Shown here: one piece after another, positions 16,318 to 51,140 of the stretch
How the letters are laid out: every line of letters starts with the position of its first letter
Numbering within the stretch: position 1 is the first letter of the stretch
Assembly: GCA_032718475.1 (NCBI GenBank)
Contig: JAUCBJ010003500.1
Coordinates: forward strand, 1-60,945
Direction of reading: 5' to 3'
Origin: Nemertoderma westbladi
Lineage: Eukaryota > Animalia > Xenacoelomorpha
Length of the DNA stretch: 60,945 nt
Made by a program: the position numbers and the translations under genes
Notes under the pieces: generated by a model
What the model was told of the DNA's origin: nothing
Database searches by the model: none
The model's input: the letters and a program-made list of their open reading frames with translations, nothing else

Positions 16318-18489
16318 TTAATTTAATTTAATTTAATTTCATACACAAACAAACAAAATATAGTTTGGTACACCGTAATTAATGTGCACAAATCGACCAC
16401 CTAAACTATAAAATAACAAAAGCACAGACTGAAACAGAAACAAGACAAAATATTGGTAATATGTAAGTGTATTAAACCCTAACCAACAAACTAAGAGAAG
16501 AATCATGCAGTGGCAGCAAAATTTATAATATTATCTAGTTCAAGAGAATCAAAACCGGGAACACTAGCGTTATTTAACCGACAATTAATAAGTTCTTGTA
16601 ACAAAGGAACCCGCCATTCATTACCAACAGGCACATGTGCATAACTCAAACTATTAGCAAACCTTGGGACCAGAGAACGTAAATTATATATGTTACACCG
16701 GTTACCAATATTTCGTAAATTTGTGCCCGAACGTGTCCTACAATCAAAAACGCACAGTTCAGCCAAAAATCGTATAATACGTTTATTAGATGTGAGTAAA
16801 GAGTTAACAAATTTAACATAACGAGTTTGCAACATTACGCACGGATGCTTAAAAGGTACCAAATTCTCTACAATAAATCTATGTGTATTGTAAGGTAATC
16901 TGAATATTAATCTAATATTAATATTCCACGATGTATAAATTCTAGATGTACTGTCTGAAAAAAGGTCCCATAGATTACTCCCAAAAAGACAAGTTGCGTA
17001 AATCCGCTGGATATCGCACAATAAATAAGGATCAGAAAAATAAAACTCTTGTCTTAGTGCATTTAATTTACCTATTAATTGGCCGCGTTTTTTCAGTACA
17101 TCAGACACCATACTATTGCGAAAATCAAAAACATGCCCCAAATGAACTGCCTCACGAACCCATGGCAAATCGTGACCATTTAAATGTATTCTGGCAGCAG
17201 GTTCCCTCCAACGCGTCGAGTTGCTGAATGCAATACATTTCGATTTAGACTTCTCTGGAGTTACATTTGTACTGAAAACTAAATCATTATCTTGTGCAAA
17301 TCTTTCGCATAATGAAACCATAAACTGAAGGCCGCACAGAGATGGGCACAGCAAGAAAATATCATCCGCGTATGCTAGTGCACCCAAGAAATAAGTGCCT
17401 ATCCAGCATCCTACACCTGCCTCTCGCAGACGCACAAGGAGCGAGTTGAGAAGAATGCAAAACAGAATTGGCGAGGCCACAGATCCCTGTTTTACACCAT
17501 TAGAAATACCGAAAGGAGACGATAAAGTTTCATTCCAACGGACACAACAGGATTGATTGGAATATATCCACAGTAGGGTACGTAGGAATAACGGAGAGAA
17601 ACCCTTTTTGATCAGTTCCAAGAATAGTTTACACCACTCGACCATATCGAATGCCTTTGTGAGGTCAAGTAGACTCCCATATACTGGTGTATTGTACCTG
17701 GAGTAATGACCAATCACCTCTGAGGCCACCCACGAGCACTGGCTTGTCCCCGTACCAGACTGAAAACCGAACTGCAGCTCATCCAATGAAAGGCATTCAG
17801 ATTGTGACAGCAACATTACCCATTCAAATAGTTTGATTAACAATGATGACAAAGCTATTGCACGGTAGTTACTAGAGACGGCTTGATCACCCAGCTTATC
17901 TTTAATTAAAGGTAATATAACGCAAGTCAGAAGAAATTGAGGTACAAAACCATGAACAAGAAACAAGTTAAATAACCTAACTAATTGCTCTCTAAATTCC
18001 GGGCCCGCATTGATTAAGCAGTCCGAATCAAATCCAAAGGCTACATCTGTCTTAGAACTTTTAAGCTTATTCATAGCCTCCCAAACTAGCTCTGAAGTTA
18101 TAAGCGGCAATGCATCCCTATCACAACTGTCCAATTTCTCATGAATCTGCTGCCGTAAACCTTCCAAATTTGAGTTATAAGGTTGATTAAACAATGTGGA
18201 GTAAATTGAAGCAAAGCGATCAGCTATTGACTGTGAGTCAACACAGTCATCTATTCTAGAACTAACTACAGGCGACACCCGACGCAGCTTCTTAATCTCC
18301 TCGAATATCTGATGATTGTTTCTCAAACAGGCTTGCAGTAATTTGTCTCGCTGAATGTTATCAGAAGCGCGTTTCAACCGTCGCACAGCATATTTAAACT
18401 GAGCTCTTGTAACTCTACGCATATGAAATAGATGTGCATTTTGAGAAACATTCGGACACCCAGCAGACACCCAGACACTATGCCAACAA
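16318..18489 (-). mobile_element. 5'-truncated non-LTR retrotransposon (LINE) inserted in the 60-bp satellite; clade not resolved
   Basis: Uninterrupted RT ORF, about 165-nt 3'UTR and an (AAATT)n tail at 16318-16339. No TSD; about 4 bp (GGTT) of the monomer is missing at the junction. Confidence 0.95.
16503..18489 (-). CDS. LINE ORF2 reverse transcriptase, N-terminally truncated (no endonuclease domain)
   Basis: Motifs NYRAIALSS, QFGF, LDLTKAFD, GVKQGSVASP, YADD and HLG in the 655-aa ORF, with no internal stops. Confidence 0.92.
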
Positions 18490-21400
18490 ACACAAACTTT
18501 ATTTAAACTTCAGTTTATAATAATTTACCTGGTTGGGTTGCCTTTGGTTACACAAACTTTATTTAAACTTCAGTTTATAATAATTTACCTGGTTGGGTTG
18601 CCTTTGGTTACACAAACTTTATTTAAACTTCAGTTTATAATAATTTACCTGGTTGGGTTGCCTTTGGTTACACAAACTTTATTTAAACTTCAGTTCATAA
18701 TTATTTACCTGGTTAGGTTGCCTTTGGTTACACAAACTTTATTTAAACTTTAGTTTTTAATAATTTACCTGGTTGGGTTGCCTTTGGTTACACAAACTTT
18801 ATTTAAACTTCAGTTTATAATAATTTACCTGGTTGGGTTGCCTTTGGTTACACAAACTTTATTTAAACTTCCATTCATAATAATTTACCTGGTTAGGTTG
18901 CCTTTGGTTACACAAACTTTATTTAAACTTGAGTTTATAATAATTTACCTGGTTGGGTTGCCTTTGGTTACACAAACTTTATTTAAACTTCAGTTTATAA
19001 TAATTTACCGGGTTGGGTTGCCTTTGTTTACACAAACTTTATTTAAACTTCAGTTTATAATAATTTACCGGGTTGGGTTGCCTTTGGTTACACTAACTTT
19101 ATTTAAACTTCAGTTTATAATAATTTACCTGGTTGGGTTGCCTTTGGTTACACAAACTTTATTTAAACTTCAGTTCATAATAATTTACCTGGTTAGGTTG
19201 CCTTTGGTTACACAAACTTTATTTAAACTTCAGTTTATAATAATTTACGTGGTTGGGTTGCCTTTTGTTACACAAACTTTATTTAAACTTCAGTTTATAA
19301 TAATTTACCGGGTTGGGTTGCCTTTGGTTACACTAACTTTATTTAAACTTCAGTTTATAATAATTTACCTGGTTGGGTTGCCTTTGGTTACACAAACTTT
19401 ATTTAAACTTCAGTTTATAATAATTTACGTGGTTGGATTGCCTTTGGTTAAACAAACTTTATTTAAACTTCAATTTATATGTAATAATTTACCTGGTTGG
19501 GTTGCCTTTGGTTACACAAACTTTATTTAAACTAATTTACCGAATTGGGTTGCCTTTGGTTAAACAAACTTTATTTAAACTTCAGTTCATAATGATTTAC
19601 CGGGTTTGGTTGCCTTTGGTTACACAAATTTTATTTAAACTTCAGTTTATAATAATTTACCGGGTTGGGTTGCCTTTGGTTACACTAACTTTATTTAAAC
19701 TTCAGTTTATAATAATTTACCTGGTTGGATTGCCTTTGGTTACACAAACTTTATTTAAACTTCAGTTTATAATAATTTACGTGGTTGGGTTGCCTTTGGT
19801 TACACAAACTTTATTTAAACTTCAGTTTATAATAATTTACCTGGTTGGGTTGCCTTTGGTTACACAAACTTTATTTAAACTTCAGTTTATAATAATTTAC
19901 CTGGTTGGGTTGCCTTTGGTTACACAAACTTTATTTAAACTTCAGTTTATAATAATTTACCTGGTTGGGTTGCCTTTGGTTACACAAACTTTATTTAAAC
20001 TTCAGTTCATAATTATTTACCTGGTTAGGTTGCCTTTGGTTACACAAACTTTATTTAAACTTTAGTTTTTAATAATTTACCTGGTTGGGTTGCCTTTGGT
20101 TACACAAACTTTATTTAAACCTCAGTTTATAATAATTTACCTGGTTGGGTTGCCTTTGTTTACACAAACTTTATTTAAACTTCCGTTCATAATAATTTAC
20201 CTGGTTGGGTTGCCTTTGGTTACACAAACTTTATTTAAACTTCAGTTTATAATAATTTACCGGGTTGGGTTGCCTTTGTTTACACAAACTATATTTATAC
20301 TTCAGTTTATAATAATTTACCGGGTTGGGTTGCCTTTGGTTACACTAACTTTATTTAAACTTCAGTTTATAATAATTTACCTGGTTGGGTTGCCTTTGGT
20401 TACACAAACTTTATTTAAACTTCAGTTCATAATAATTTACCTGGTTAGGTTGCCTTTGGTTACACAAACTTTATTTAAACTTCAGTTTATAATAATTTAC
20501 CTGGTTGGATTGCCTTTGGTTACACAAACTTTATTTAAACTTCAGTTTATAATAATTTACGTGGTTGGGTTGCCTTTGGTTACACAAACTTTATTTAAAC
20601 TAATTTACCGAATTGGGTTGCCTTTGGTTACACAAACTTTATTTAAACTTCAGTTTATAATCATTTACCGGGTTGGGTTGCCTTTGGTTACACTAACTTT
20701 ATTTAAACTTCAGTTCATAATAATTTACCGGGTTGGGTTGCCTTTGGTTACACTAACTTTATTTAAACTTCAGTTCATAATAATTTACCTGGTTAGGTTG
20801 CCTTTGGTTACACAAACTTTATTTAAACTTCAGTTTATAATAATTTACCTGGTTGGATTGCCTTTGGTTACACAAACTTTATTTAAACTTCAGTTTATAA
20901 TAATTTACGTGGTTGGGTTGCCTTTGGTTACACAAACTTTATTTAAACTTCAATTTATATGTAATAATTTACCTGGTTGGGTTGCCTTTGGTTACACAAA
21001 CTTTATTTAAACTAATTTACCGAATTGGGTTGCCTTTGGTTAAACAAACTTTATTTAAACTTCAGTTTATAATCATTTACCGGGTTGGGTTGCCTTTGGT
21101 TACACTAACTTTATTTAAACTTCAGTTCATAATAATTTACCGGGTTGGGTTGCCTTTGGTTACACAAACTTTATTTAAACTAATTTACCGAATTGGGTTG
21201 CCTTTGGTTACACAAACTTTATTTAAACTTCAGTTTATAATCGTTTACCGGGTTGGGTTGCCTTTGGTTACACTAACTTTATTTAAACTTCAGTTCATAA
21301 TAATTTACCGGGTTGGGTTGCCTTTGGTTACACTAACTTTATTTAAACTTCAGTTCATAATAATTTACCTGGTTAGGTTGCCTTTGGTTACACAAACTTT

Positions 21401-26156: not shown

Positions 26157-26701
26157 TGTGACGGGATCCAGATGGGATCCCGGTTTATCCGGTTTTGTCA
26201 GTTCACGCGTCCCCGCCGTGTGTGAAGAGTAAAAGAGTTTCGGTTGTTCGACGTGTATAATGTTTGGGTATATGGATATAGATACGGTATAATGGTGGAT
26301 AAAGTTATTGCATATGGAAGGCGGGAGACGGTAATTGAAATCCCGGTACTTCCCTAACTAAACTATTGTAAGCTACAGTAACACCAGTAACTAGCACTGA
26401 GATAACTGAACTGATATGATTACAGGTTACTGGTTATATTGCACGGTGGCCTTATTGCTACTCAATCGATGCCTTTCCCCCCTCCTGATTGGTTGGTACC
26501 CTTGTTGGTGCCCTTTGGAGTGTTCCCGTTCACTCCACCTGTTCTCTCTGGGTTAGGGGTTTGGCCCCTGACCCTCATTGTGTGTTTCCTTCCCATTTTT
26601 ATTGGGATGGCACGAGTTGGTTAATTACCCAATCTCGTGGCTCCCAATATTGCTTATCGGCTTAACTTTATGGGGTGTTAGCGGGATTGAATAAGCTAAC
26701 A
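26157..26701 (-). repeat. 3' LTR (545 bp)
   Basis: Direct repeat of 37981-38525; 3 substitutions seen. Confidence 0.97.
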
Positions 26702-26710
26702 CTCCCCCCC
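26702..26710 (-). other. Polypurine tract (GGGGGGGAG) abutting the 3' LTR
   Basis: Purine run immediately upstream of the TG of the 3' LTR on the sense strand. Confidence 0.9.
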
Positions 26711-27345: not shown

Positions 27346-28426
27346 TCACGTGGCGCCTTCCAGGCGCACTACATCAAAGCCCCAGTCCATCCCTCCTTGG
27401 CGTCCGTGGTGTCCCCGAAAGTTGCACTTCGGATATCGGTTCTGTAACCGTGGACACGCTCCCATCCTGTGGCTCGTCTCGTCGCAGTAGAGACAGCTGG
27501 TCCCTTTCTGGAACCGGTACAAGCAGCTCCTTTCCTGGTGGGTCTGTCTCCCACAGTAGCCGCAACCGAGTACCAATGTCTCCCGCCCCACATCGTCTTT
27601 CATCCCAAGCGATCTCCGCGGTCTGTGGAGTCGCTGATAGGCGAATTTCTCCACGTTAGCGTCTCTGTCTACGTCGATCTCTCCGCCCCTCTTGGGCATC
27701 GTCTCCCCGAATACTACCCGTGGTGCCGTCCCCGGTTGCTTGCCCAACCTGATAGTGCTCCCCGCTAAATCCATCGCCGGCTCCTTGTGCACCCAGGCCC
27801 GCTTGCCGGGTTTGTCCCAGAAGGCTCTCGCCCCACTGGTCGTCACCACCCTCCCGCCAACCCAGTCCGTGTCCGAGTGGCCTATCCTCTCGATGGGCGG
27901 CATCTCTCCGAACTCGTCGTCGTCCTCGTCCTCCTCTCGCAGTGGTTCCAACCCCGGTATCCCGGTGGACCCACTATGTTCCTTTCCACCTTGGTTCCTG
28001 CCCGTAACTCTCCATTCCTCAAGCTCCCCTAGCCTCTTTTGCGGTTGGTCGCCCTCGGCGCCCGCTGGTGTGGGAATCGCTTGCAATCCCGACGTCGACT
28101 GTTTCAGTGATCCCACCGTCCACCCTAGTTCTTTCCCTAGAGACTCCCCCGAACTCCCTGACGAAGCCCAACGAAGTTCGTCTAAGGCTGCTTGTTCCTC
28201 GAAGCCGTAGCTCTGCGCCCTAGCTTCCTCCTCCCTCTCCTCTGCTTCTCTCCTCTCTCACAAGTTTGCCTGCCATCTCGAACTCTGCCCGATCGCTCAC
28301 CCGTAAGTGGTGCCTTGCCAAGGCGCAAACGTGATGAGTGATGGGTTTAGGTGGTTTAAGCTCAGTTCGATGGCCTATCTCTTTCTGAATTTTCGAGTTA
28401 TTGCCTATTCTTACTACTGTTACCAT
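27346..28426 (-). CDS. Additional ORF of the BEL/Pao element (about 360 aa if one frameshift near 28255 is repaired), with C-terminal CX2CX4HX4C zinc knuckles
   Basis: CGYCGRQTHQERSC, CLYCDETSHRMGAC and a degenerate third (YPKCNFRGHH). The frame is open from 28257 to 27346. The upstream 68-aa ATG ORF joins it through a (GA)n tract. Confidence 0.65.
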
Positions 28427-28689
28427 AATTTGTTCCCCTTCTTAGCCCTATTCTTATTCTAACTTTATTTTGATTTAATTTCAATCCTACTACCCTACTG
28501 CTTCCTATTGATTATTCTATTCCCTAATCCACATTCTGGCCTACTCTGTGGGCCTATGCGGTACAGCAGTGTGCGTCGCGTGGCCACACGATTTACCCAG
28601 CTGTACTCATATGCCCCCCTCTCGCTACTAACACTACTAACTGCTAACTAATATCTATATCTTACATACCCTTCTACCTCTTACTCTTT

Positions 28690-29175
28690 CTCTAACTAAC
28701 GGTACTACGTACCCTCTAACTCTCTACCTAACGGTACTACGTACCCTCTAACTCCAACTCTTCTCTAACTAACGGTACTACGTACCCTCTAACTCTAACT
28801 CTTCTCTAACTAACGGTACTACGTACCCTCTAACTCTCTAACTAACTAGTGGTACTACGTACCCTCTAACTCTCTAACTAACTAGTGGTACTACGTACCC
28901 TCTAACTCTAACTCTTCTCTAACTAACGGTACTACGTACCCTCTAACACTAACTCTTCTCTAACTAACGGTACTACGTACCCTCTAACTCTCTAACTAAC
29001 TAGTGGTACTACGTACCCTCTAACTCTCTAACTAACTAGTGGTACTACGTACCCTCTAACTCTAACTCTTCTCTAACTAACGGTACTACATACCCTCTAA
29101 CTCTCTAACTAACTAGTGGTACTACGTACCCTCTAACTCTAACTAACTAGTGGTACTACGTACCCTCTAACTCTA
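28690..29175. repeat. 13 tandem units (32-41 bp), each containing GGTAC-TAC-GTACC, between pol and the extra ORF
   Basis: Core at 28701, 28733, 28774, 28815, 28851, 28887, 28928, 28969, 29005, 29041, 29082, 29118 and 29152, separated by CTAA/CTCT-rich spacers. Confidence 0.95.
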
Positions 29176-29326: not shown

Positions 29327-32300
29327 CTAAGGTGCCCCTTCTAACAGACAGCATTTGCCTACAGCTCTCCTGTAGGTTTTTCTGTCCTTCGCAGCTATCT
29401 TTCCACCTATCCGCACTTCTACCGATCGGACTCTTCCGTCCTCGTCGGAGTAGGTGCCTACAACTCTCGCCAACCGCCATTGGTTGTTGATGATAGTATC
29501 ATCCGTAACGATTACGAGATCTCCCTCTCTTAACTCCCTATTCGGCTTCCTCCACCTGCTTCTTTTATGGAGTGTGGGTAGGTATTCCTCGACCCACCTC
29601 CTCCAATACTCTGCGCTAATTGCTTTGGCGACTTTCCAACTTTGGCGGGAGTGTATGTCGTCTGGATCTACACCCCGCATGTCGATGGTCGCTGGCCTTT
29701 CCATCAGGAAATGGCTAGGCGTCAGCACGTCTAGTGACTCAGGGTCATCATTCTCCGGGTATAGCGGTCTGCTATTAATGATCCCCTCGCACTTCGCAAG
29801 CACCGTCCGTAAGACGTCTTCTGTGACCATGTGGGTGTTCATTAGCTTCGTCATTAGACGCTTTGAACTGCCCACCAGTCTCTCGACGCATCCTAGTGTA
29901 TGTGGTGCATACGGCGTCCTCCTCTCCCACTTTACTTGTCGTCTTCTCATGGCTGCCCTGACTTCTTCTCCCTCCAAGATGTCCAATGCCTCTGCCATCT
30001 CATTCTCTGCGCCCACAAAGTTGGTGCCGTTGTCGCTGTATATCACTGCGATCGTCCCACCTTTGCGGTCCCTAAACCTTTCTAAGGCATTAATGAATGC
30101 TGATGCGGTTGCATCTTGGGCGAGTTCTATCCCTACCGCCCGTGTGTTGTTGCATACGAAGATAATGCCGTAGCGTTTCTCCGTGTGTCGCATCACTTTG
30201 ATCTTTATCGGCCCGAACATGTCCACACCGCAATGCGTAAATGGCGGGTCGTGCTGTCTTACCCTACTCGCCGGTAGTGGCGCCATCTCCTGTACGGCTC
30301 GCTCCTTCTTCGCTCGTCGGCAGGTCTGGCACTGCCCCACTACCGCTTTTACCTTCTTCCTCAATTGTTTGACCCAATAGGTCCTCCTTATCTCTGTGAG
30401 GGTTCGGTTGGTGCCCCCATGCAATATGGATTTGTGGGAGTCCCATATAATCTGATGGACTATCGGCGATCCTGTAGGAATGATGATGGGTTTCGGTGGT
30501 ACGACTATGCTGTTGTTGTATCCCACCCTAGAATTCATTACTAGAATCCCCTCGTCATTGAGTTGTGGCGACAGCGTAATCAGCTCGCTGTCCCGTCGGA
30601 GGTGCTGTTGGTTACCGACGCGTTCCATCTCGTCGCCGTAGTTCTTCCATTGTTCATAGCGGATCACTGCCTTGGCCACTCCTTCCAGATCTATGGTTGT
30701 CCTGGTCTTCTTGTCCTTACCAACTCCCGCAAGGAAATTCCCGAAGGCTCTCCAGTACGCCACTAGTTTCTTGGTCTTATACCAACTAGAACTGTAACTG
30801 AGGAGTTTATCTGTCGGATTATCGCACAGTTCTCGTCCTGGTTGCACGTCCCTAATCTCCCTCACCATCTGGGAGTATATCTCTTCTCCCTCTGAATCGC
30901 CCTCTTCTCCTTCTGATACCACTTCTGAGCCCGGGTCCACCCTTCTCATCGGCGGCCAGGCCTCCTTATCGCTCAGAAATTGTGGCCCATGCTGCCACAA
31001 TACTTCCTTCTTCAGGAAAGTGTGGCGTTCTACGCCCCTCGACAGCAAGTCCGCTGGGTTCTCGTCTGTTGGGCAGTAGTGCCACCTTTCCAGTTCTGTG
31101 GTCGCCCTTATTTCGTCCACTCTATTTGCGACGAATATCGGGTATCTCGTCCTTTCGTTATGTAGCCAACCAAGCACTACCATGGAGTCCGTCCAGTAGT
31201 GTGTCTCCACTATGTTGGGAATAGTATCCACTAGGTAGGCTGTGGCTCTAACTCCTAGTCTCGCAGCTGTCAATTCTAACTTGGGAACTGATGCTGAATC
31301 TGGCGGCGTTGACTTTGCTTTACTAAAGGCTAGTCTGGGCTTATGAGCCCCCTCTCGATGTACTAAATAGAGTGCCGCTCCGTACGCCTCCAACGACGTA
31401 TCGGAGAACATGTGTAGGTCCAGACTCGTCATGTTCCCATCCGGGAAATACACTCGAGGCATGTTGTATGTTCCCATCTTCTCCAAGTCTCTTGTCCACT
31501 TGCTCCACTGTTTCTTGATTTCCTCTGGTACCTCTACGTCCCACTCATCCTTCAATTTGTATACTCTCTTGAGTATCTGTTTCCCCGTGACTAATAATGG
31601 GGATGCTAGGCCTAGGGGATCGTATATCCTTGCTATATACGATACATAGCCCCTCTTCGTGTGGATGCCTGCGCCCTCCTGGCTCAGCTGATACTTCAGT
31701 TCATCTGTCTCTCTATCCCACACGATTCCCAATGCCTTCTGTTGAGATTATGTTCTCTTAATCGCCATGTCCTGCCCTTTGGCTGTTGTGGGATTATCCA
31801 TGCTCGATTCTGGTCTCCTGTCCTCTATCGCCTTGATAAATTCTTCCGAACTGGATTGGAATTTGGTCAGGTTAAAGCCGGATCCTTTTAGGATGTCGCG
31901 AACCTCGCGCCCTGTGTCCAGTATCTCCTTAACCGTATTTCCAGACTCCATTCCGTCGTCTACGTAGAAGCCGCGTCGAATCATATCGACGGCTCTACTG
32001 CTGTATCTATCTTCCTTCCCCTTCACTGTGTCTCTCACTGCCATAGTCGTCGTAAATGAAGACGACTTGGCCCCCATGTTTTGTACTACCATCTTATATG
32101 CTGGTATTATCGGCGGTTCTTCCTCGCCGTTATACCATAAGAAGCGCTGACTGTCGCTATCTTCTTCCGTTACACGGACTTGGTTGAACATGCCTTCTAT
32201 GTCACACGTGAAGGCGTGTTTCCCATTTCTAAATCTAAGTAGGACCTCTATGCCCGAGTTGTATATGTTTGGGCCTTCTAACAGGTAATCGTTTAAGCGT

Positions 32301-33397
32301 TTTCCGTCTGTCTTTGCTGATGCGTCGACTACCATCCGTAGTTTACCTTTCTTTGGGTCTAAAGCCACGTGTAGTGGCAGGTAATACGTCCTGTCTGTGT
32401 TCGGCTCGTCGACCGGTAACTCCACGGCCCATCCTTTCTCGACGTACTTTTTAATTGTTCTGTGGATGTACTCATTCTTCTCGGGGCTCCGTTTTAGTGT
32501 TTGTTTCAGCTTGCGGAGTCTCGTGAGTACCATCCCCCTATTGTCGGGCAGCGGTATCTTCGGTAGTTTCCATACCATTCCTATAGTATACCGCCCCTCA
32601 TCGCATGTCATCGATTCCTCCACGCTTTGTAAAGCCTGCTTGTCTTCCACCGAGGTCCCGACCCCGGTTTCTTTCAGTCCCTCGAAATCATGTCTGAGCA
32701 GTCTTTTAAGCTGCTCCTCTGCCCCCTCGTCACCCATTTCCTGCATTGTTCCCGCGAACATGCATCCTGATGTCTCCGACATCCTAAATGGTATCTTGCT
32801 CTTAATTGGACCACTCAGCGTCCACCCGAATGGTGTTAATATGGCCACCGGGTCACTCTGCTTGTCTTCGCCGAAGACCGTTTGCATTCTTTCGTGGGCC
32901 GTTGGGCAGTCCATGCCTACTATGATGGACACCTTCCTAACGTCCACGTCTGGGATTGAGAAGTCAATGTCGTCCAGGAATTTATACTGCTCGACCTCGA
33001 TGTTGGTTGGCCGCCTGGCATTGATATTAATTGACTCTATCACTTGGATGGGGTCGATGGTTGCCCCATAGTCGCATCCTGGTGCCACTGCTGCAATTGC
33101 GCACCGTCCTGTTCTCATCTCCAGGATCACATCTTTGCTAGAGATGGTTGTTACCGCCATTCTGCTTGGCCTCGTTCTCAATCCTATCTCTTCGGCCACC
33201 CATTCTTCGATTAATGTGAAGGCAGCTCCACTATCAACCAGCATTAATGTTGTTATTGATCGATTGCCTTCCCCAATCACTCGCATGGGTACTACTCCAA
33301 GTAGCACCGTTCCTCTCTTCTTCGCCCCTACTGTGCTCGTCGCCATTGTTTGGCCTCTCCTTTGACCAAACTTGACCGGCTTCTCCTGTCCACTCAT
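29327..33397 (-). pseudogene. pol: BEL/Pao pol (aspartic protease, RT, RNase H, integrase) with one in-frame TAA at 31748-31750
   Basis: LVDSGA protease; FYVDD RT; Pao RNase H; H..H/CX2C, DMFGP, SDNGTNF and E integrase. The 549-aa and 801-aa ORFs are in the same frame, separated only by the stop. Confidence 0.93.
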
Positions 33398-36300
33398 TCA
33401 TGTCCACTCATTACACATCGTGAGCAGATTTTGTTGCTGAACGCATAATCTATCTGATCTTGCCTAGGTAGCGCCTGCCAGTACCTGCAGTTCATGGTTT
33501 GATGAAGCGCATTTGCGTGTAGCTGGCATTTGCTCTTTGGGTCGTAGCCCTCTTCATAAAGCGCATTGCGTATCGCAGTTGCGTTTGTACCAAAGTCCCT
33601 ACTATTCTTATTGTTTGGATTCGGCCTATTGGACGTACTGGGGTTATGTTTATTCGTGTTGTTATTGTTCCCCTGTCCGTTCCATGGTGTGGTCTCATCT
33701 TCGGCTAGCTGTGGACTTGCAGTCCCCTGCGTCGCTGCATATGGCAATGATTGCCTGAGTCTCGGTAATGCGTTTGATGTATTGTGCTCTGGTTTCGGTC
33801 TATGGTAGTCTATCTTCGGTCCCTTTCCCAGGCTATCTTCACTATAGACTGGGTCAGTTATTAGCTCAGCCTCGTAGTTTAAGAAGTTTGACATTTCTTC
33901 TAAACCCGGTTCCGCACCCTTTTGTCTCGAGTGGAGAAAGCAATTTTCCTCCACTTGTTGCGCATCCAACTCGGTAGTGCCTGTGCTATCGTGGTGATGT
34001 TATTGGACGCATTGAGCTCGTATGGTGCGTCTAGCGTCTTCAGCACGATCAGCGCCTTTTCGACTTTGTTAGCGAACGTCTTAATGCTAACGGGATTATC
34101 CTGTAGGCCACCCGATGTTATGCCCCTCAGCGTCTGCCTGATGATCTTGGCCGGGTGCCCGTATTCCCTATCCAGTGCCCGCCATGCTGTCGTGAAGCCG
34201 CCCTCTATTCCTTGATATTGCCTCACGATATCGTATGCTGGGCCTCCCGTATATACTTGCAGATATTTTAGGCACTCCGCCTGCGTCAAGTTTTTTGTTA
34301 GTATTTCGTTACTATACATGCGCCGAAACTGTAGATATTCTTCCGGCCTACTCCCATCGAATTTGAATGGTTCCACGGGTGGTAGCTCGTTCCTCGTTTT
34401 CAACGCATCGATCAGCGTGGCCATCCCCATCGCCTGCGCTTCCAATGGATTCGACGGGTGCTGTATAGTTTCTCCTGTCTGGTGCGGTTCATCCGTCCTA
34501 TTTCTTGATCTTCTCTGACTTGGGTATGTCATCGGGGGTAGCGGCCCCCTCCATATTTCTGTGTCACACGACCTGTTTTCATCTAAGGGTCTCGTTGTTC
34601 TTGCTCCTATCGGGGTATATTGTTGATATTGTGATGGGGGAATGTCACCCTGTCCCCCCCCCCCCCCCCCCCGCCGGTATGTTTGGTAATGGGGTTGATG
34701 TTAATATGTTGGGGCCCATACACCTATCCGCAATAATTCCCCCCTCCCCTGGGTATATGTTATGTCCCTGCATGCTGTAGTCATACTGCTGTACTGGTAC
34801 CGGTATAGGCCTATCAGCTTCTGGCCTACTCGCCGGTATGTATTCCGCGACTTCCGGGTTTAATCCCGTTGTCCGCGCCATCCTATCCCCTACATTGCCT
34901 CTCTCAGTATGGCCTATGGTATGTGCAGTAAGGCCTACAGTATGTCCTACAGTCTGCATGTGTTGTTCGGGATCGAAGTTTATTCTTCTCGAATAATCCT
35001 CCCCGCGGCTACCGTATTCTCGATCGATAGGTGTATTCCGTCGGAAAGTTTCTCTTCGACCCCCCCCCTCTACTGTTCTCATCTTCGTACCGGTACATCG
35101 CGTACCCCTCTCTCGGCGCGTAGTGCGCCTCACCGGGTCGCATCTCTCCGGGGCGATGGCAATCTCCCGGAGTCCGACCCCACTGACTCTCTGTTCTCAT
35201 CTCGACCACCGACGGCTCGCTATCCGTCCTCGCTCTTCTATCGTTCGCGGCGATACCTCTACTACTATCTTCTCTTCTTCTCCTTTCAGTGGAGTATTCC
35301 CGCTCGTGAGATCTCTCGTCGACCTCCTGGTTAAACCCCACTGTTCTTCTTCCCTCTTCTGATCGGGCTCGACGCTTTGTCCGCCCTCTCACGACGTCAA
35401 CCTGTCTCTCTCTGCTCGGTCGCACGCCGCTGGGGATACTCGCAATCCCCCTATTACTTTCCGTCGCCGGTTGTTGCGGTTTACCTATTTCGGCCCGCGC
35501 ATTATCCGCTGACGGCTGTGGGACACTCTCTGCCCCCCCCCCCCTTTCGCCGCTAACTCGCTGTTGTGGGGCCCCTGTAGCCCCCCCCCCCTTTCGCCAC
35601 ATCTAACTTCGCTATCCCTCACCCCGCTACTATATCCCTCTCTAGTCGACACATCAACCCTACCGCGGTCGGGTCTATTCACCCCCGCCTCTCCCTCTGC
35701 TATTGCGTGGCCTACCAGGCCCTCTGCACCCTGCCTACCAACTATGTGGCCTACCAGGCCCTCGCTGGGTCTATTCAACCCAGCCACCCCCTGCCTACCA
35801 ACTACGTGGCCTACCAGGCCCTCGCTCGGTCTACCTAATCCAGCTACTCCCTGCCTACTAACTGTGTGGCCTACCAGGCCCTCGCTGGGTCTATTCAACC
35901 CAGCCTCTTCCTGCCTACCAACTACGTGGCCTACCAGGCCCTCGCTGGGTCTACCTAACCCAGCTACTTCTGGCCCACCAACTGCATGACCTACCAGGCC
36001 CCCGTTTGTCTGGCTATACACGCCCGACGTGTTTACGTTAATAGCACCCATATTGGAACCAGAATTAATTTGTTCCTTCGAAATAAAATCATTTGAATTA
36101 TTTTGTGCGACTACACTATCTGAATTATTTTGTAAATTCGGGCTCAGATTATTATTTAGATTATTTGGATTATTTTGGGGATTATTTTGCGTAGCTACAT
36201 TAATATTAGAATTATTTTCTACATTAATATTAGGATTGTTCTGATTTAAATTTAAATTACTATCACTAGGTAAATTATTTCCTGCAATAAAGGTTTGATT

Positions 36301-37938
36301 AGAATTATCCCATACGGTACTATTAATATTAACCACGTCTACTGTACCATTATCATTATTACCCCCCCCGCCCGTACGGTTACACCAGTTTTGGGTCTGT
36401 CGTGCGGTCCCTGTAAGTGGGGTATTAATAAATGTATCCACGGCCCCTGGCTCCCCTAGAATACTCGAGCCAGTCCCGCTCTCAGACGTCCCCGCCCGCA
36501 CCAGTTGCAGCTCGTGCATGCGTCTAATCCTATGTTCCCCAAGCTCACTTTGGCGTCTCTTTAGTTCCTTTTGCTCTCGCTCAGCTTCTACCATTCTCCT
36601 CTCACATTCCCGCGCGTCCCGCTGAGCCAGCTCTGCTATTTTTCTAGTGCTCTCCCTTCGCCTCGCTTCACGCTCCTTACGTTCACTTTCCTTTCTCGCC
36701 TCATACTCCTTGCGTTCCGCCTCACGCTCCCTGCGTTCCCTTTCCTCTCTCGCCTCACGCTCCTTGCGTTCCCTTTCCTCTCTCGCCTCACGCTCCCTAC
36801 ACTCCTTTTCCTCTATTTCCTCATACTCCCTAAGGCTTCTCAAAGCCCTTTCGGCCTTCTCTCCGGTTTCTCTAATCAATGCCGCTCCCCTCTCTAGCCG
36901 CATTCTCCCCTCCTCCAGCCGTTCACCCATTTCCTTCTGACCTTGCTCTATCAGCTCGAGACGGTACGCGGCACCTACCTCTCTCACCCGTCTTCCTTTC
37001 GCGGAGGATGTAGCAGACTTATCGGTTATGACGGACTCCCTCCGCCTTCCCGATCTACTATCTTTCCCCCGCTTCCCGGAACTTCCTCTGACCGACGAGG
37101 CCGAATCCTCGGGGTTAACCTCGGATTCGCCCCCTTCAGGTCCCCTCCAGCCCACTAATTTTACTCCCCGGGCATCGACCAAGTATGGCCCTATGTACAC
37201 TGACGCTACGCTAGGTTCCATACTCCCACATTCCCATAGTTCGAGCAGTTCATTGGCAACCCCTTTCGCTCTCTCCTCGGCTAGTTCTCTCTGCCCAAAA
37301 CGCATTAGGTAATTAAAGTGTCTATCCGACTCACCTAGTCGTTTCCTCAGTCTCACCTCATCTATCTTCGCCCCTTCCTTCTTAGCGTCCTTTAGTAGTC
37401 TCTGGGTCGCGTTGTAGGCCCGTCGAAGTCGATCAGAAACCCCGACGTCCTCGTCGCCGACCTCTCTTCCATCTCTCCGGGTCCGACGTCGTACCGGCGG
37501 CCCCACCGTCGCCATTCCGGCGGGCCGTCCGTCACCCTCGGCCTGTGGCTGGCCGGCGACATCGGTACCGATATTTCTTTCGTCTCTCTGCGTCCGGGGC
37601 CGCACCGTCGGCCCCACCGTCGCCGTTTCGGTGGGCCGCTCGTCGCCCTCGGCCTGTGGCTGGCCGGCGACATCGGTGCGCCGACCCCCGTCCTGTGTCG
37701 ACTCATCTCCTTCTCCCTCCGTCTCGCTCTCTCTTCCTCTCGGCTCGACCTCGGGTTCCAGGCCCCCCCCCCCATCCTGAACTGCCGGATGACCCGTTAC
37801 CGATGGGTCCGGCGTTGTGGGCCTGTATCGCCTGGTTGCGGCCTCGCAGATCGTTAATTCTTCTTCGTCCGGGGTCCGCGTCGGCGTTGTCTCTCCCGAC
37901 TGACTCATCTCGTTTGGTGATTGGTTGTTGGTAGTCAC
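33394..37938 (-). pseudogene. gag: BEL/Pao gag (about 1500 codons) broken by frameshifts near 35585, 35064, 34660 and 33920
   Basis: DUF1759-like segment ELPPVEPFKFDG...; knuckles CQLH..HQTMNC and CSRCVMSGH; long low-complexity N-terminal part. The frameshifts coincide with homopolymer runs. Confidence 0.85.
35707..36000 (-). repeat. In-frame 60-bp (20-aa) repeats in gag (GLxRPSEGLVGHxVGRQGVA), about 5 copies
   Basis: TGGCCTACCAGGCCCTC recurs every 60 bp. Confidence 0.9.
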
Positions 37939-37971
37939 TGAGTTTTAGTTAGTTAGGGCGGCAGCTCTGAG

Positions 37972-37980
37972 TTCAATTAC
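37972..37980 (-). other. PBS position: GTAATTGAA (non-TGG), complementary to 38155-38163 inside the 5' LTR
   Basis: Plus strand TTCAATTAC at 37972-37980 abuts the LTR; GTAATTGAA occurs at 38155-38163. Confidence 0.6.
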
Positions 37981-38525
37981 TGTGATGGGATCCAGATGGG
38001 ATCCCGGTTTATCCGGTTTTGTCAGTTCACGCGTCCCCGCCGTGTGTGAAGAGTAAAAGAGTTTCGGTTGTTCGACGTGTATAATGTTTGGGTATATGGA
38101 TATAGATACGGTATAATGGTGGATAAAGTTATTGCATATGGAAGGCGGGAGACGGTAATTGAAATCCCGGTACTTCCCTAACTAAACTATTGTAAGCTAC
38201 AGTAACACCAGTAACTAGCACTGAGATAACTGAACTGATATGATTACAGGTTACTGGTTATATTGCACGGTGGCCTTATTGCTACTCAATCGATGCCTTT
38301 CCCCCCTCCTGATTGGTTGGTACCCTTGTTGGCGCCCTTTGGAGTGTTCCCGTTCACTCCACCTGTTCTCTCTGGGTTAGGGGTTTGGCCCCTGACCCTC
38401 ATTGTGTGTTTCCTTCCCATTTTTATTGGGATGGCACGAGTTGGTTAAGTACCCAATCTCGTGGCTCCCAATATTGCTTATCGGCTTAACTTTATGGGGT
38501 GTTAGCGGGATTGAATAAGCTAACA
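37981..38525 (-). repeat. 5' LTR (545 bp)
   Basis: Direct repeat of 26157-26701 with TG/CA termini. Confidence 0.97.
38228..38262 (-). promoter_or_regulatory. Putative LTR core promoter: TATAA followed by tandem TCAGTT initiators
   Basis: Minus strand CAATATAACC...ATCAGTTCAGTT. The TATA starts 26 and 31 nt upstream of the two Inr adenines (38236, 38231). Confidence 0.5.
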
Positions 38526-39228
38526 CTTCAGTTTATAATAATTTACCAGGTTGGGTTGCCTTTGGTTACACTAACTTTATTTAAACTTCAGTTTATAATA
38601 ATTTACGTGGTTGGGTTGCCTTTGGTTACACAAACTTTATTTAAACTTCAATTTATATGTAATAATTTACCTGGTTGGGTTGCCTTTGGTTACACAAACT
38701 TTATTTAAACTAATTTACCGAATTGGGTTGCCTTTGGTTAAACAAACTTTATTTAAACTTCAGTTTATAATAATTTACCTGGTTGGGTTGCCTTTGGTTA
38801 AACAAACTTTATTTAAACTTCAGTTTATAATAATTTACTGGGTTTTTGTTGCCTTTGGTTACACAAACTTTATTTAAACTTCAGTTTATAATAATTTACC
38901 GGGTTTGGTTGCCTTTGGTTACACAAACTTTATTTAAACTTCAGTTTATAATAATTTACCGGGTTTGGTTGCCTTTGGTTACACAAACTTTATTTAAACT
39001 TCAGTTTATAATAATTTACCGGGTTTGGTTGCCTTTGGTTACACAAACTTTATTTAAACTTCAGTTCATAATAATTTACCGGGTTGGGTTGCCTTTGGTT
39101 ACACAAACTTTATTTAAACTTCAGTTCATAATAATTTACCGGGTTGGGTTGCCTTTGGTTACATAAACTTTATTTAAACTTCAGTTTATAATAATTTACC
39201 GGGTTGGGTTGCCTTTGGTTACACAAAC

Positions 39229-39278: not shown

Positions 39279-40018
39279 TTACACAAACTTAACTTTCATT
39301 TCAACCTTAACCGCGGGATCGTTACTGTTACCAACACACCAGTGTATACCTTCATTATCGTCTAATCCGTGTATTCCATTAAGATTTGAACATTGGCATT
39401 TGCGGCTTTGTTTGGTTTTGTACCACCATCCACCGCCTCCATCAGTAGTTAAACATGTCATCGATTCGATATCAGCTGATCCCTTTGCATAAAAAGGTGT
39501 TTCATGAAGACCATCTTGAATAATCATAGCATCGCCAGCATCTCCAAGGTAATCCTTGATATCTAAACTGAAAGCATTTCCTGATACTTTAAATTCTGAA
39601 TATTTTGCGTATTTCATTACCTCCAGTACACCGTCACTGTCGTCGTCCCACCACAGGTCAATCCGCAGCTGCGCCGTCCCTTGTTGAGTCAGTAGACGTA
39701 TCTTTTCCAATCCGAGCCAGTAATTCTTATCCGCCTTTCCGAAACCCGCGAGGTACTCACTGTAATCGCGATCGAAGATTTCAGATGCATCAACCCTGCG
39801 CTGTATAATCAACCAGGGTTCACCCTCAGTAGTGCGGTCGCATCTGACTTTGTTACCATCGTTGGTTAGACCGTAGGTGTCGTCATTAATTATATCTGTC
39901 TTCGCATTGTAGCATGGGTTTACTTTCAGCGGATCATACACAGTCGTGGTGGTGGGTGCGATGGTGGTTTTGGGTGTGGTATCTTTAGTCGGAATAGTTT
40001 CGGGTACGACTGTTGTAC
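39279..40018 (-). CDS. Terminal exon: Thr-rich linker plus fibrinogen C-terminal (FReD) domain
   Basis: VRCD..WLIIQRR..GFG..YWLGLEKI..LRIDL..GDAGD..GGWWY..C.SNLNG..GIHW..EMK. Acceptor AATATTTCAG at 40028-40019, phase 1; stop TAA at 39281-39279. Confidence 0.92.
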
Positions 40019-41435
40019 CTGAAATATTATTGCCATAAGTCACGGAATAGTAAGCATTAATTATCACCCCAGATTGATTGATTGATATGATTGATTGATA
40101 TGAGCCCGTACGGGCTCTTATATTTTTTTTAATATCAAGGATGACCGCACACAATATTAAAATTGTACAATCAGTATACTATACAGTATACAGTACAGTA
40201 GGCCTATACTATACGCAGTATTCCCTCAATATGCTCTGGTATACAGTTCAGGGGATAAGTAATTTGTGGGACAATATTTTGTTTTGGCACATAGGTAATA
40301 ATTTATTGCGTTGCATTAATAAATAATTATGGCGAATAATAATAGTTTGGCACAAAGTTTTTAGTAGTGGGCCTCCCGGCACAAAATGTTGTTTATTGAC
40401 GAAGTAATAGTGATCTAGGTTATAGTAATTCTAATTTAATTATCAATTATTTATCAATCAATTTAATTGGGGACGGTGCGGGGTTGCGGGGCTCCGATCT
40501 ACCCGATCGGTATTAACCGATCTCGTATTTACTTCGTTTGTGACTTTAGATAGGTAATATAATATAGATTAATTATTTAGGCTATTTAATAAACAACTTG
40601 TGCAGTTTACTATGTAAATTTACTATGGATATTCATTTAATTGTCAATTATTTATTGTTTTTGTTAAAAATGCCCATCTCAATTGCGGATATTTTCCAGT
40701 GTAATTAAAAAATGTTAAACCTTAAACATGAATAAAATTACTTGCCAGGTTACTTTAATTTACCATAAATTTCCAATTAATTCATTAAAGAACGTTGCAG
40801 TACAACTATACATGTGTCACTTTAATGAGTTCCCGTTTAATTGAATAATGTCCCAGTTTAAGTAAAAAAAATGGAAAATTTTAAATATCGGTAAATGTCC
40901 TTTAAAAAAAGGTGAACGTTCATTAAAAGTGTGGCTCTTTAAATAAAAAATATACAAAATAGTTTGATGTATCATGTATATTTCACTCCACAATTTAATA
41001 GGGCATATGTTTGGCAGTGTCACCCGTTTTGTCAGCGTGTCTGCCTAGCTCATTGTTAATTAAATAAATTGGAGATGAGCTGTTGCAACTGTAATTAAAG
41101 GTGTAATATTATGGGGGTGTTCAATGTTTGAAGACCCTTTTCTGAATTTTACCACTATTTCAACTGTTTCGGGATATTTGAGAACTCATGAATCAATATA
41201 CGCAAATTATATAGCATACAGTTGACAAACTACATGTACAGTATACCAAGTTTGATTTACTATTACTACACGTTCGTGGGGCCATCGCGCTGTACGAGGG
41301 TCAGTTATTGGATACAGATTAAAATTGAACAATTCTATCCTAAAATCGGTACTTAAGAAATTTAATTAATAAATTAGAAATTTAACCAAACCGCCTATAA
41401 GAATAAATCAAAGAAGAAAGGAAAGTTCCCCTTAC

Positions 41436-48918: not shown

Positions 48919-51140
48919 GGATAGTTCTTTTTACAGAACACAGCAGAACACAGTAGAACACAGCAGAACACAGTAGAACACAGCAGAACACAATAGAATA
49001 CAGGCGGAACATAGGCGAACACAGCTGTAATTAAAATCTACACCAAAAAATAACACACTTGGGAAAGTACCTGACTTAATCATACAACTGTAAGATGTCA
49101 ATTACATATTTAAATTAAATGGCGGTTTTCCATATCCTCCAAAATATATTACCTGATCAGAGTTGCCCGATCAGCTGTTCGGTTAGGCCTGTACCTGTTA
49201 CTAGTCCAGCAGTCTGCCTGTCAGCCTGTTCCAGTACTGCCGTAGGCCTAGTGCTGTAGAGACTACTACTAGGATCGGCATGCTGCATTGCAGCTGCATT
49301 TTTAAGAATGCTGTGCCGGCTTGTCAACAAAATTGCACCGCCACAACTCCCTATCACCCATGACATTTGCTAGATCATCCGCATCTTTAAGGCCAGTATC
49401 CTTTAAGATGCGTCTCAAGAAAGTCATGGGCTGTCCACCATGCTTATTCACTCCATGAGGCTGCCAAAGTACAAGATTATGCACTGGCTGGTCCTCACGG
49501 CGAAAGCAATGTCCTGCAAAGCGGAGGCGATTTTGTTCTAGTGTCAAGCTTGGGGGAACCAATGAGACACCTCCAATGTTATATAGTGTCTGGTTGTAGA
49601 TGTGTGCATTGTACTTGACACAATGTACCCGGCGTAGCATTCTTGTGAATGTGCCATCCAGAGATTTGGTGTCCTCAGCAGTTAGAGCCCAGCATGGACT
49701 CCCGTAGAGGAGTACTGGAACTACTGCTGCTCTAAATAATCGGACCTTAAGTTTCCGACTAATTCTAGGTGACTTCCAAATCCTGGAAAGCCTATTCAAG
49801 GCTGCCCATGCCTTTCCCTTACGTATTCGAAGGTCCTCACCTTACTTCCGGATCCATGATCCCAGGTAACAGAAGTCGTCCACATGCTCAAGCATACCAT
49901 CCTTTGAGCTTATGCTCATCCGATCAGAGACTTGCTGAGGACTTTCAAAGTTAACTGTCAGAATTTTGGTCTTTCTGGAGTTAATAAAAAGACCAACACT
50001 AGAAGCAGCATGTTCTAATGAGCTAAGAAGCCGTTGGGCTCCTTCTAATGATTCTGAGAGTACTCCTAAGTCATCAGCAAAGTCTAGATCAGTTAGGTAC
50101 TTGGCAGGATTTCCTCGACTTCTGGAGCCAGTAGGTGGAGTTATCATCACCCCATCATCATTATGATGATCTAAGGACATGCGTAGAACATAGTCAACCA
50201 CAATAATGAACAAGAATGGTGCAAGTGTGTCTCCTTGGAGGACGCCCCATAACACTTCAAATGGTTCTGTGTCACCGTCAACAGTAGACACAAATGTTGT
50301 CGAACCATCGTATACTGATCTGATTGCTGCAATAATTTCATCAGGAATCCCATATAATGAAAGTATGCTGAACATACGTGAGCGAGAGACTGAATCAAAG
50401 GCCTTGAAGAAGTCAACAAAGATAACAGCCAGATGCCTGTCTTTCTTTTTTTATAACTCTTCAATTATCCTTCTAAGTGCCAAAATGGGCTCCATGGTCC
50501 CACGACCTTTTCGGAACCCATTCTGATTTCCACGTAGCAGTCTCTCAATGGGATCCCTGATGCGATTTAATAGAATTCTATCGAGATCAATGAGATTCCC
50601 CGAAAAGAACCATAGAGTGTTAGGTTGCCCTTCTTGGGAACTGGCACCAACTTATTTGTTTTCATTTCTTGTGGGACTCTTGTTGTACGGTACATGTCTA
50701 CTATGATGGGATAGATGAGCTTTAAACACTCAGGTATTTAGGCTGTAGAGACATGTACAGACTGACAGACTGTACATTGTACAGACAGACAGATGTAGGC
50801 ATTTACCGGCAATTACCGGGCACAGTGTAGAGTATATTACCAATGTACTGATGTAGGCCTACTCAGCTACCGGTACTGTACTGCTGTAGAACTAACCAAC
50901 TCTTCATGGTTACAGGATAATGAGAAGTAATTTATTTTGGAGGATATGGAAAACCGCCATTTAATTTAAATATGTAATTGACATCTTACAGTTGTATGAT
51001 TAAATCCGGTACTTTCCCAAGTGTGTTATTTTTTGGTGTAGATTTTAATTACAGCTGTGTTCGCCTATGTTCCGCCTGTATTCTATTGTGTTCTGCTGTG
51101 TTCTACTGTGTTCTGCTGTGTTCTGTAAAAAGATATATCC
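48919..51140. mobile_element. Non-autonomous Mutator-like (MULE) element with long TIRs
   Basis: About 210-230-bp TIRs (48919-49146 and 50933-51140) containing 10-bp CAGAACACAG repeats; 9-bp TSD AAAAAAACG (48910-48918 and 51141-51149). Confidence 0.85.
49264..50741 (-). mobile_element. 5'-truncated, frameshifted RTE-type LINE nested in the MULE
   Basis: QNGFRKGR, FVDFFKAFDS, GVLQGDTLAPFLF, FADD, YLGS, RLRFAGH; (TAG)n tail; 11-bp TSD GCTGTAGAGAC (49253-49263 and 50742-50752). Confidence 0.9.

Follow-up and report, generated by a model that had tools for sequence, protein, structure and literature searches.

A candidate internal self-primer within the LTR RNA of a BEL/Pao retrotransposon from Nemertoderma westbladi

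The element and its surroundings

The window, that is the whole stretch of 60,945 nt that was analysed, carries an LTR retrotransposon on its minus strand. Its LTR pair (38525-37981 and 26701-26157) has TG...CA ends and 3 differences between the copies, and is bounded by a 5-bp TGAAG target duplication at 38530-38526 and 26156-26152. The parts of the element are as follows.

37981..38525, minus strand: 5′ LTR, 545 bp, TG...CA, compared with the 3′ LTR
26157..26701, minus strand: 3′ LTR, also 545 bp, holding a second copy of the primer segment described below (26339-26331)
26702..26710, minus strand: polypurine tract, adjoining the 3′ LTR
29327..37944, minus strand: gag-pol in several open frames (DUF1759 gag, protease, RT, Peptidase_A17/RNase H region, integrase, DUF5641)

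Pfam matches were obtained for DUF1759, the aspartic protease, Peptidase_A17, the integrase and DUF5641, together with a weak match for RVT_1 (E 0.003), and the element was placed in BEL/Pao because of this domain set. With its LTRs, target site duplication, polypurine tract and the gag/PR/RT/RNase H/IN order all present, it is a member of BEL/Pao (Belpaoviridae). PF05380 occurs in all 120 homologues among the matches listed. The copy is broken: several frames share its coding region, which also has one in-frame stop. Among 423 homologues (1412-4030 residues) the nearest are about 35% identical, and the best identity in the tree comparison is 36%. The named clades BEL, Tas, Pao, Sinbad, Suzu, Dan, Flow and Sailor were considered; a quick tree, built without named clade references, puts the element on a long end branch outside any supported group.

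According to ICTV, Belpaoviridae have genomes of 4.2-10 kb, host tRNA-Arg or tRNA-Gly primes them at an 18-nt site, and their replication is called poorly understood (PMC8742986). The window element agrees with that description in its LTRs, polypurine tract, gag-PR-RT-RH-IN order and animal-type host (PMC8742986). It differs in having no 18-nt tRNA site, in its length of 12.4 kb and in an extra 3′ frame. This frame, of 303 codons (27346-28257, minus strand), lies between the integrase and the 3′ LTR; two CCHC-like knuckles can be seen in it by eye and it has no Pfam match. It is preceded by a 36-bp tandem array at 28677-29174. A perfect 11-bp hairpin with a 7-nt loop, read from the sequence at 26739-26711 (minus strand), stands immediately before the polypurine tract.

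The surroundings are rich in repeats. Satellites of a 31-bp unit (373 copies) and a 60-bp unit occupy 4-11561 and 11908-39303, and the 60-bp array contains both the BEL/Pao element and an RT-bearing insertion (16503-18509). Inverted repeats of 198 bp (98%) at 48955-51124 flank a broken frame for RT and DUF6451 (49302-50450), which may be a piece of a non-LTR element lying within a DNA transposon. A frame with a fibrinogen C-terminal domain (39279-40178, minus strand) fits an animal host.

The primer site, its LTR complement and the RNA fold

In the first-pass annotation of this DNA, made from sequence alone, the absence of TGG after the 5′ LTR was noted as part of a candidate case of self-priming. 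The absence is real: the internal region begins GTAATTGAA, no TGG was found in its first eight positions (+1..+8), and the typical 18-nt tRNA site is therefore missing. This leaves the protein-based placement in BEL/Pao intact. The same annotation named an exact 9-nt complement in the LTR at 38163-38155. We find it there, with its 3′ C opposite +1, and elsewhere in the window only as the 3′ LTR copy. The features around the site are listed here.

37972..37980, minus strand: primer-binding position +1..+9 (GTAATTGAA), without TGG and without a spacer after the LTR
38155..38163, minus strand: candidate self-primer 3′ end, forming helix H1 (TTCAATTAC), with the cut predicted to fall between 38155 and 38154
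38228..38316, minus strand: predicted promoter, with CCAAT at 38316, TATA at 38262 and Inr-like TCAGTT at 38238 and 38233
38176..38189, minus strand: tether helix H2, LTR side, predicted to pair with leader 37958-37946 (P 1.0 and 0.69)
37946..37958, minus strand: tether helix H2, leader side (+23..+35), from the LTR/leader helix scan and folding
38200..38217, minus strand: tether helix H3, LTR side, predicted to pair with leader 37941-37929 in either of two registers, one of them at P about 0.4
38144..38154, minus strand: helix H0, pairing with U5 38041-38032 and starting one base past the predicted cut (P 0.99-1.0)
37987..38005, minus strand: U5 hairpin of 7 bp, six bases ahead of the primer site (P 0.99)
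38226..38236, minus strand: helix A, the rival primer, 11 nt long and beginning at the first Inr-like A, pairing with +1..+11 (two G-U)

The LTR was scanned for CCAAT, TATA and Inr-like words, and all three kinds are present. Transcription likely starts near 38231, 31 nt from the TATA word, at the second Inr-like word. Among the family contigs introduced below, 38239-38234 varies in several while 38233-38226 has no listed change, so the second Inr-like site is the conserved one. The primer segment would lie 68-73 nt inside the predicted start, much as the first reading had it (about 70 nt inside the transcript). Coverage in a presumed RNA run (X6) is confined to U3 and a short gag stretch, which leaves it silent on start or cut.

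Chance complementarity is one rival. The R region is AT-rich and motif-repetitive, with several GTTA/TTAC-like repeats, and the chance of about 0.002 put forward earlier was too low: LTR dinucleotide shuffles give about 0.004-0.009, with the 9-mer present in 22/5000 at offset 0 and in 44/5000 when offsets 0-3 are allowed. A 10-bp helix like H2 arises alone in 123/5000 shuffles. The complement and a nested 10-bp helix appeared together in 0/5000.

Three features go beyond the first reading: two extra helices with the leader, nested with H1; a competing 11-nt helix at the predicted RNA 5′ end; and the position of H1 outside the minimum-energy fold of the uncut RNA. A scan of the LTR against the leader gave the H2 core of 10 Watson-Crick pairs (38185-38176 with +23..+32) and H3, a 10-bp helix that includes G-U pairs and differs among copies, with many variants in the contigs compared. 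The region folds better than 100/100 shuffles (z -3.6). H1 alone is worth -7.7 kcal/mol, and H1 to H3 together -41. The hairpin in U5 noted earlier at 38005-37987 is also predicted here.

In the uncut RNA, H1 has a P of 0.08 and lies 2.2 kcal/mol over the minimum-energy fold, which counts against internal priming. Once the RNA is nicked at the 3′ end of H1, its folding probability rises from 8% to 95%. When 31 nick positions were scanned, H1 reached a P of at least 0.8 at four of them (38155, 38154, 38153 and 38031), all at the junction of H1 and H0; it was 0.51 at 38156 and at most 0.44 at the remaining positions. Helix A has a P of 0.0 even when freed. In these folding models the cut product is feasible; its actual production is a separate matter.

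Matched changes in the family and complements in distant elements

Variation within the family was taken from contigs of public runs, compared with the 5′ junction region; X4 and X5 are two studies. The family is abundant and diverse in these contigs. In two X4 contigs the agreement with the window stops just left of 37977; the sequence beyond, a loose end in each, gives the site of a sister lineage, GTAACTAAA. Loose ends left of 38176, in one contig each from X4 and X5, carry TTTAGTTAC in place of TTCAATTAC. TTTAGTTAC and GTAACTAAA are perfect complements: the pair at +5 has gone from A-U to G-C and that at +7 from C-G to U-A, with 9/9 Watson-Crick pairs kept. Compensatory change in relatives had been proposed as a check on the pairing, and these two double-sided changes in H1 provide it, with partners linked by depth alone. 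The sister segment and the sister site lie on separate contigs, none spanning both. In X4 the site types split at depths of 62 versus about 101 (by subtraction from 234.8) and the LTR types at 69 versus 103, and this agreement links sister site to sister segment; in X5 the depths of the sister partners, 25 and 74, show no match and count against the link. At about 11% divergence, two matched changes in H1 are unlikely to arise by chance (roughly 0.002 by hand arithmetic).

H2 holds one further matched change. Its pair 38181/37953 is U-A in the window, U-G in most copies, and C-G where 38181 has also changed, the changed letters having X4 depths of 30.1 and 31.5. By eye, H2 of the sister lineage has 13 bp, two of them G-U. 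The sister lineage differs at one letter in H0, and loose ends at the U5 hairpin leave the stem arm unchanged and have other loop letters. Four other contigs cover 38163-38155, and no change in it was seen among the rows listed (40/48 substitutions, 12/58 indels, 12/40 loose ends), to which the invariance of H1 elsewhere applies. One X4 contig with the window-type site probably has a one-base gap somewhere in 37964-37976, judging from bin depth. A strand-switch joint, in which the copied primer would be preserved in DNA, was looked for and not found among the contig rows listed.

The sister lineage also bears on the classical Tf1 geometry. Here transcription would begin at 38236, helix A (the first 11 bases) would act as primer, and H2 and H3 would supply the outer duplexes of the pretzel. 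The fit is close in several respects. Helix A starts exactly at an Inr-like A, makes 11/11 pairs (two G-U) and, at -10.3 kcal/mol, is a more stable free duplex than H1. Its 11-mer may resemble the Tf1 primer more fully. Its position upstream of H2 and H3 matches the Tf1 pretzel in the accessible part of PMC10085805, and a perfect complement of it would begin ATAAC, like the Tf1 site given in part of PMC11042837. The sister lineage lacks 38235 and is one base shorter just past +9, which looks like a matched deletion. Against this, a C-A mismatch at +7 weakens helix A in the sister lineage to -5.8 kcal/mol; a start at the conserved second Inr-like site would leave it just 6 nt (-1.3 kcal/mol); its P stays at 0.0 in the nick folding; and the site retains a G at +1 that copying of a helix A primer would convert. 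We consider this geometry unlikely.

A profile scan of genome contigs yielded 8 loci, 29-35% identical to the window element, and two further long loci came from searching the bins concerned. Of these ten contigs (L008-L015, L021 and L045; the fragments L031 and L046 were left out), the 5′ junction could be placed in 4 and not in 6. It was placed by two LTRs in L009 and L012, by a partial LTR in L011 and by inference in L014. The first-pass annotation had suggested examining BEL/Pao elements without TGG for a complement in the LTR. TGG was found in +1..+8 of 0/4 elements with a placeable junction, and an LTR complement to the site is present in 4/4, across a splice junction in 3.

L009 (6091-6425) has identical 320-bp LTRs and a contiguous 11-bp complement at +5..+15, found in 4/2000 shuffles. 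The internal regions of L011, L012 and L014 begin GTAAA, and their complements of 7-8 nt start directly after AG. Taken alone these contiguous matches are weak (53/2000 shuffles for L011, 289/2000 for L012, 132/2000 for L014). Across a GT-AG junction they lengthen to 11 nt in L011, 14 nt in L012 and 13 nt in L014, each equalled in 0/500 shuffles when a GTRAG donor is used; with any GT donor the rates are 5/500, 0/500 and 0/500. The introns are of 697 nt in L011 and 493 nt in L014, and lie within the LTR at 307-624 in L012. The 7-mer of L014 is circular as evidence by itself, because the junction was chosen by eye for its GTAA start; the 13-nt match was found afterwards. Since the complements span a splice junction, the candidate primers of these three elements would have to lie within the transcript; like that of the window element, they have TAC as their end, opposite +1.

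L011, L012 and L014 form one well-supported clade in the quick tree that is not sister to the window element, so the geometry recurs in BEL/Pao and inheritance is not implied. The identity of 29-33% between these distant elements and the window element, together with their place apart from it in the tree, counts against the self-priming case. A splice-made primer for the window element itself was rejected, as its best junction gives 6 nt (144/500 shuffles). The base after the candidate primer 3′ end is C in the window, the sister lineage, L009, L011, L012 and L014, and the predicted cut therefore always falls between two C; this may reflect a cleavage preference or chance.

With two matched changes in H1, one in H2, and complements in 4/4 distant elements, we regard chance complementarity as very improbable, even at shuffle rates of 0.4-0.9% for H1.

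Selection on the structure for another purpose is a further rival; covariation is evidence of pairing and not of priming. H1 to H3 might serve packaging, dimer formation or masking of the site, the primer being a host RNA, for instance a tRNA fragment that lacks CCA. The site's complement resembles a tRNA T-loop motif, a likeness that is lost in the sister lineage. Half-tRNA primers are given for Copia lineages in part of PMC6317226. Cognate duplexes in the two lineages are worth -7.7 and -7.8 kcal/mol; the window primer on the sister site has -0.4, and the sister primer on the window site -5.5, via G-U. Since the sister-type 9-mer can pair with either version of the site, a single outside RNA could suffice for the two. 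Set against a host primer are the end of the duplex exactly at +1 in the window, the sister lineage and three distant elements, and the Rfam search of 37800-38600, which gave no match above chance (a single chance-level hit). No tRNA gene was found in the window. We give this explanation a small chance.

Two observations concern the distant elements themselves. The LTR of L012 (6017-6721) has a 5-bp duplication at its edges and ends in TA...AA instead of TG...CA. Host contamination most likely explains where these eukaryotic BEL/Pao elements were found: eight contigs that belong to bacterial genome bins, plus additional contigs from those bins. A search with the LTR-end pattern returned 7 metagenome stretches, none related by BLAST, and 0 viral stretches; protein and profile scans of viral contigs gave no relative.

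Known self-priming systems and the proposed route

Tf1, Tf2, Tj1 and the Tf1/sushi group are documented self-primers, whose primer is 5′-terminal and sits in a pretzel of three duplexes, in those parts of PMC4600332, PMC10085805, PMC5341516, PMC7175516 and PMC11042837 that were accessible. In Tf1, RNase H cuts between bases 11 and 12 (PMC7175516, in part). Outside that group, to which the first-pass annotation had confined its knowledge of self-priming, the mechanism is also predicted for Tcn1 and the Copia TAR lineage in the accessible part of PMC6317226, and GalEa has a hairpin in place of the tRNA site (PMC5445492 and PMC6934838, each in part). Within BEL/Pao, the words 'PBS' and 'tRNA' are absent from the main text of the surveys PMC3118150, PMC554778 and PMC6238403, and the accessible part of PMC3601003 has self-priming only for a hypothetical ancestor. 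Among literature listings and the starts of abstracts we found no paper on BEL/Pao self-priming, which Repbase, GyDB or subscription papers may record.

The window element resembles Tf1 and Tf2 (S. pombe), Tj1, Tosmo, Tcn1 and the Tf1/sushi group at large in having no tRNA site, a site after CA that pairs with its own LTR RNA, flanking duplexes and the need for a cut (accessible parts of PMC4600332, PMC10085805 and PMC7175516). Immediately behind the CA stands a site whose complement lies in the LTR of the element itself, a feature of Tf1/sushi self-priming. Unlike in that group, the segment is 9 nt long, lies about 70 nt inside the predicted start and is nested under tether helices; the domains are those of BEL/Pao, Pfam gives no chromodomain match, and the ancestry is not that of a Ty3/gypsy chromovirus. 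Flanking duplexes are predicted here too, and they form a pretzel only with helix A, being nested with H1. The element thus appears to work like Tf1 self-priming outside the Tf1/sushi group, with an internal and tethered primer. The Tf1-type reading of the first-pass annotation gains support from the matched changes in the sister lineage and the complements in distant elements, with the priming, the cut and the start as its putative parts.

The Copia TAR lineage (Houba, Osr-1) is a second likeness, since its self-priming is likewise predicted from LTR complementarity outside the Tf1 group; it belongs to another superfamily and another host kingdom. The accessible part of PMC6317226 shows that its survey asked for at least 10 bp, and the 9-bp H1 would have been missed for that reason. 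In the Conserved Hairpin Site of fungal GalEa a 9-bp pairing likewise replaces the tRNA site, with both arms downstream of the LTR, whereas the partner in the window is within the LTR (PMC5445492, in part).

We favour, as somewhat better than an even bet, a route in which the element primes reverse transcription with a cleaved 5′ piece of its own RNA, roughly 77 nt long, extended at the last base of the LTR. Transcription would begin near 38231, and H2 and H3 would clamp the first 77 nt onto the leader. Such tethering would be needed because H1, with 9 bp and rich in AU (-7.7 kcal/mol), could not hold the 5′ piece alone. H1 would then form at the junction with H0 and the U5 hairpin, and a cut after 38155, probably by the element's RNase H as in Tf1, would leave a 3′ OH. 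From there RT would extend the primer, adding T-G first. Strong-stop DNA would end at 38154 and transfer to the 3′ R, for which a poly(A) site further downstream would be needed. The primer site would be re-templated when the primer is copied during plus-strand synthesis, and this would explain why H1 is purely Watson-Crick in both lineages and H2 tolerates G-U.

With a self-primer whose changes are matched, self-priming would reach BEL/Pao as well, and it would be seen that a primer can lie elsewhere than at the first bases of the RNA. The route predicts a capped fragment about 77 nt long, a 5′ end newly made at 38154, and site letters that always track the LTR segment. We hold it an even bet that many BEL/Pao elements have dropped tRNA priming for an internal, tethered self-primer that ends in TAC and is cut from mid-R, here as a contiguous 9-mer on a clamped piece of about 77 nt, the size of a tRNA, and in another clade via splicing. 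If so, this would be a priming architecture apart from the 5′-terminal Tf1 pretzel, within a family for which tRNA priming is described. The finding also suggests that annotation tools requiring a tRNA site or a complement of at least 10 bp would miss such elements.

The same 9-mer could instead prime from the 3′ LTR copy (26339-26331) or from a second packaged RNA, for example from the processed 3′ end of a genome. As the primer segment and H2/H3 are in both LTR copies, all the covariation fits this reading equally. A processed end at the segment would call for a poly(A)-signal-like hexamer 15-30 nt upstream of it, where none was found; the weak candidates at 38133, 38117 and 38085 are all downstream of the primer segment. 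A primer at the RNA 3′ end would, moreover, occupy the sequence used for strand transfer. The AATAAA at 38427, in U3, was rejected as the poly(A) signal of the family, being altered in nearly all other copies. We think it improbable that priming runs from the 3′ copy. All registers of self-priming taken jointly are highly probable.

Two further observations concern U3. A long hairpin at 38417-38480, with a weak microRNA-like Rfam hit (E 3.9), would bury the AATAAA of the window copy. In the contigs, U3 (window 38260-38525) is far deeper than R and the leader, with loose ends before 38240, suggesting that a related LTR family in which R starts differently is far more abundant.
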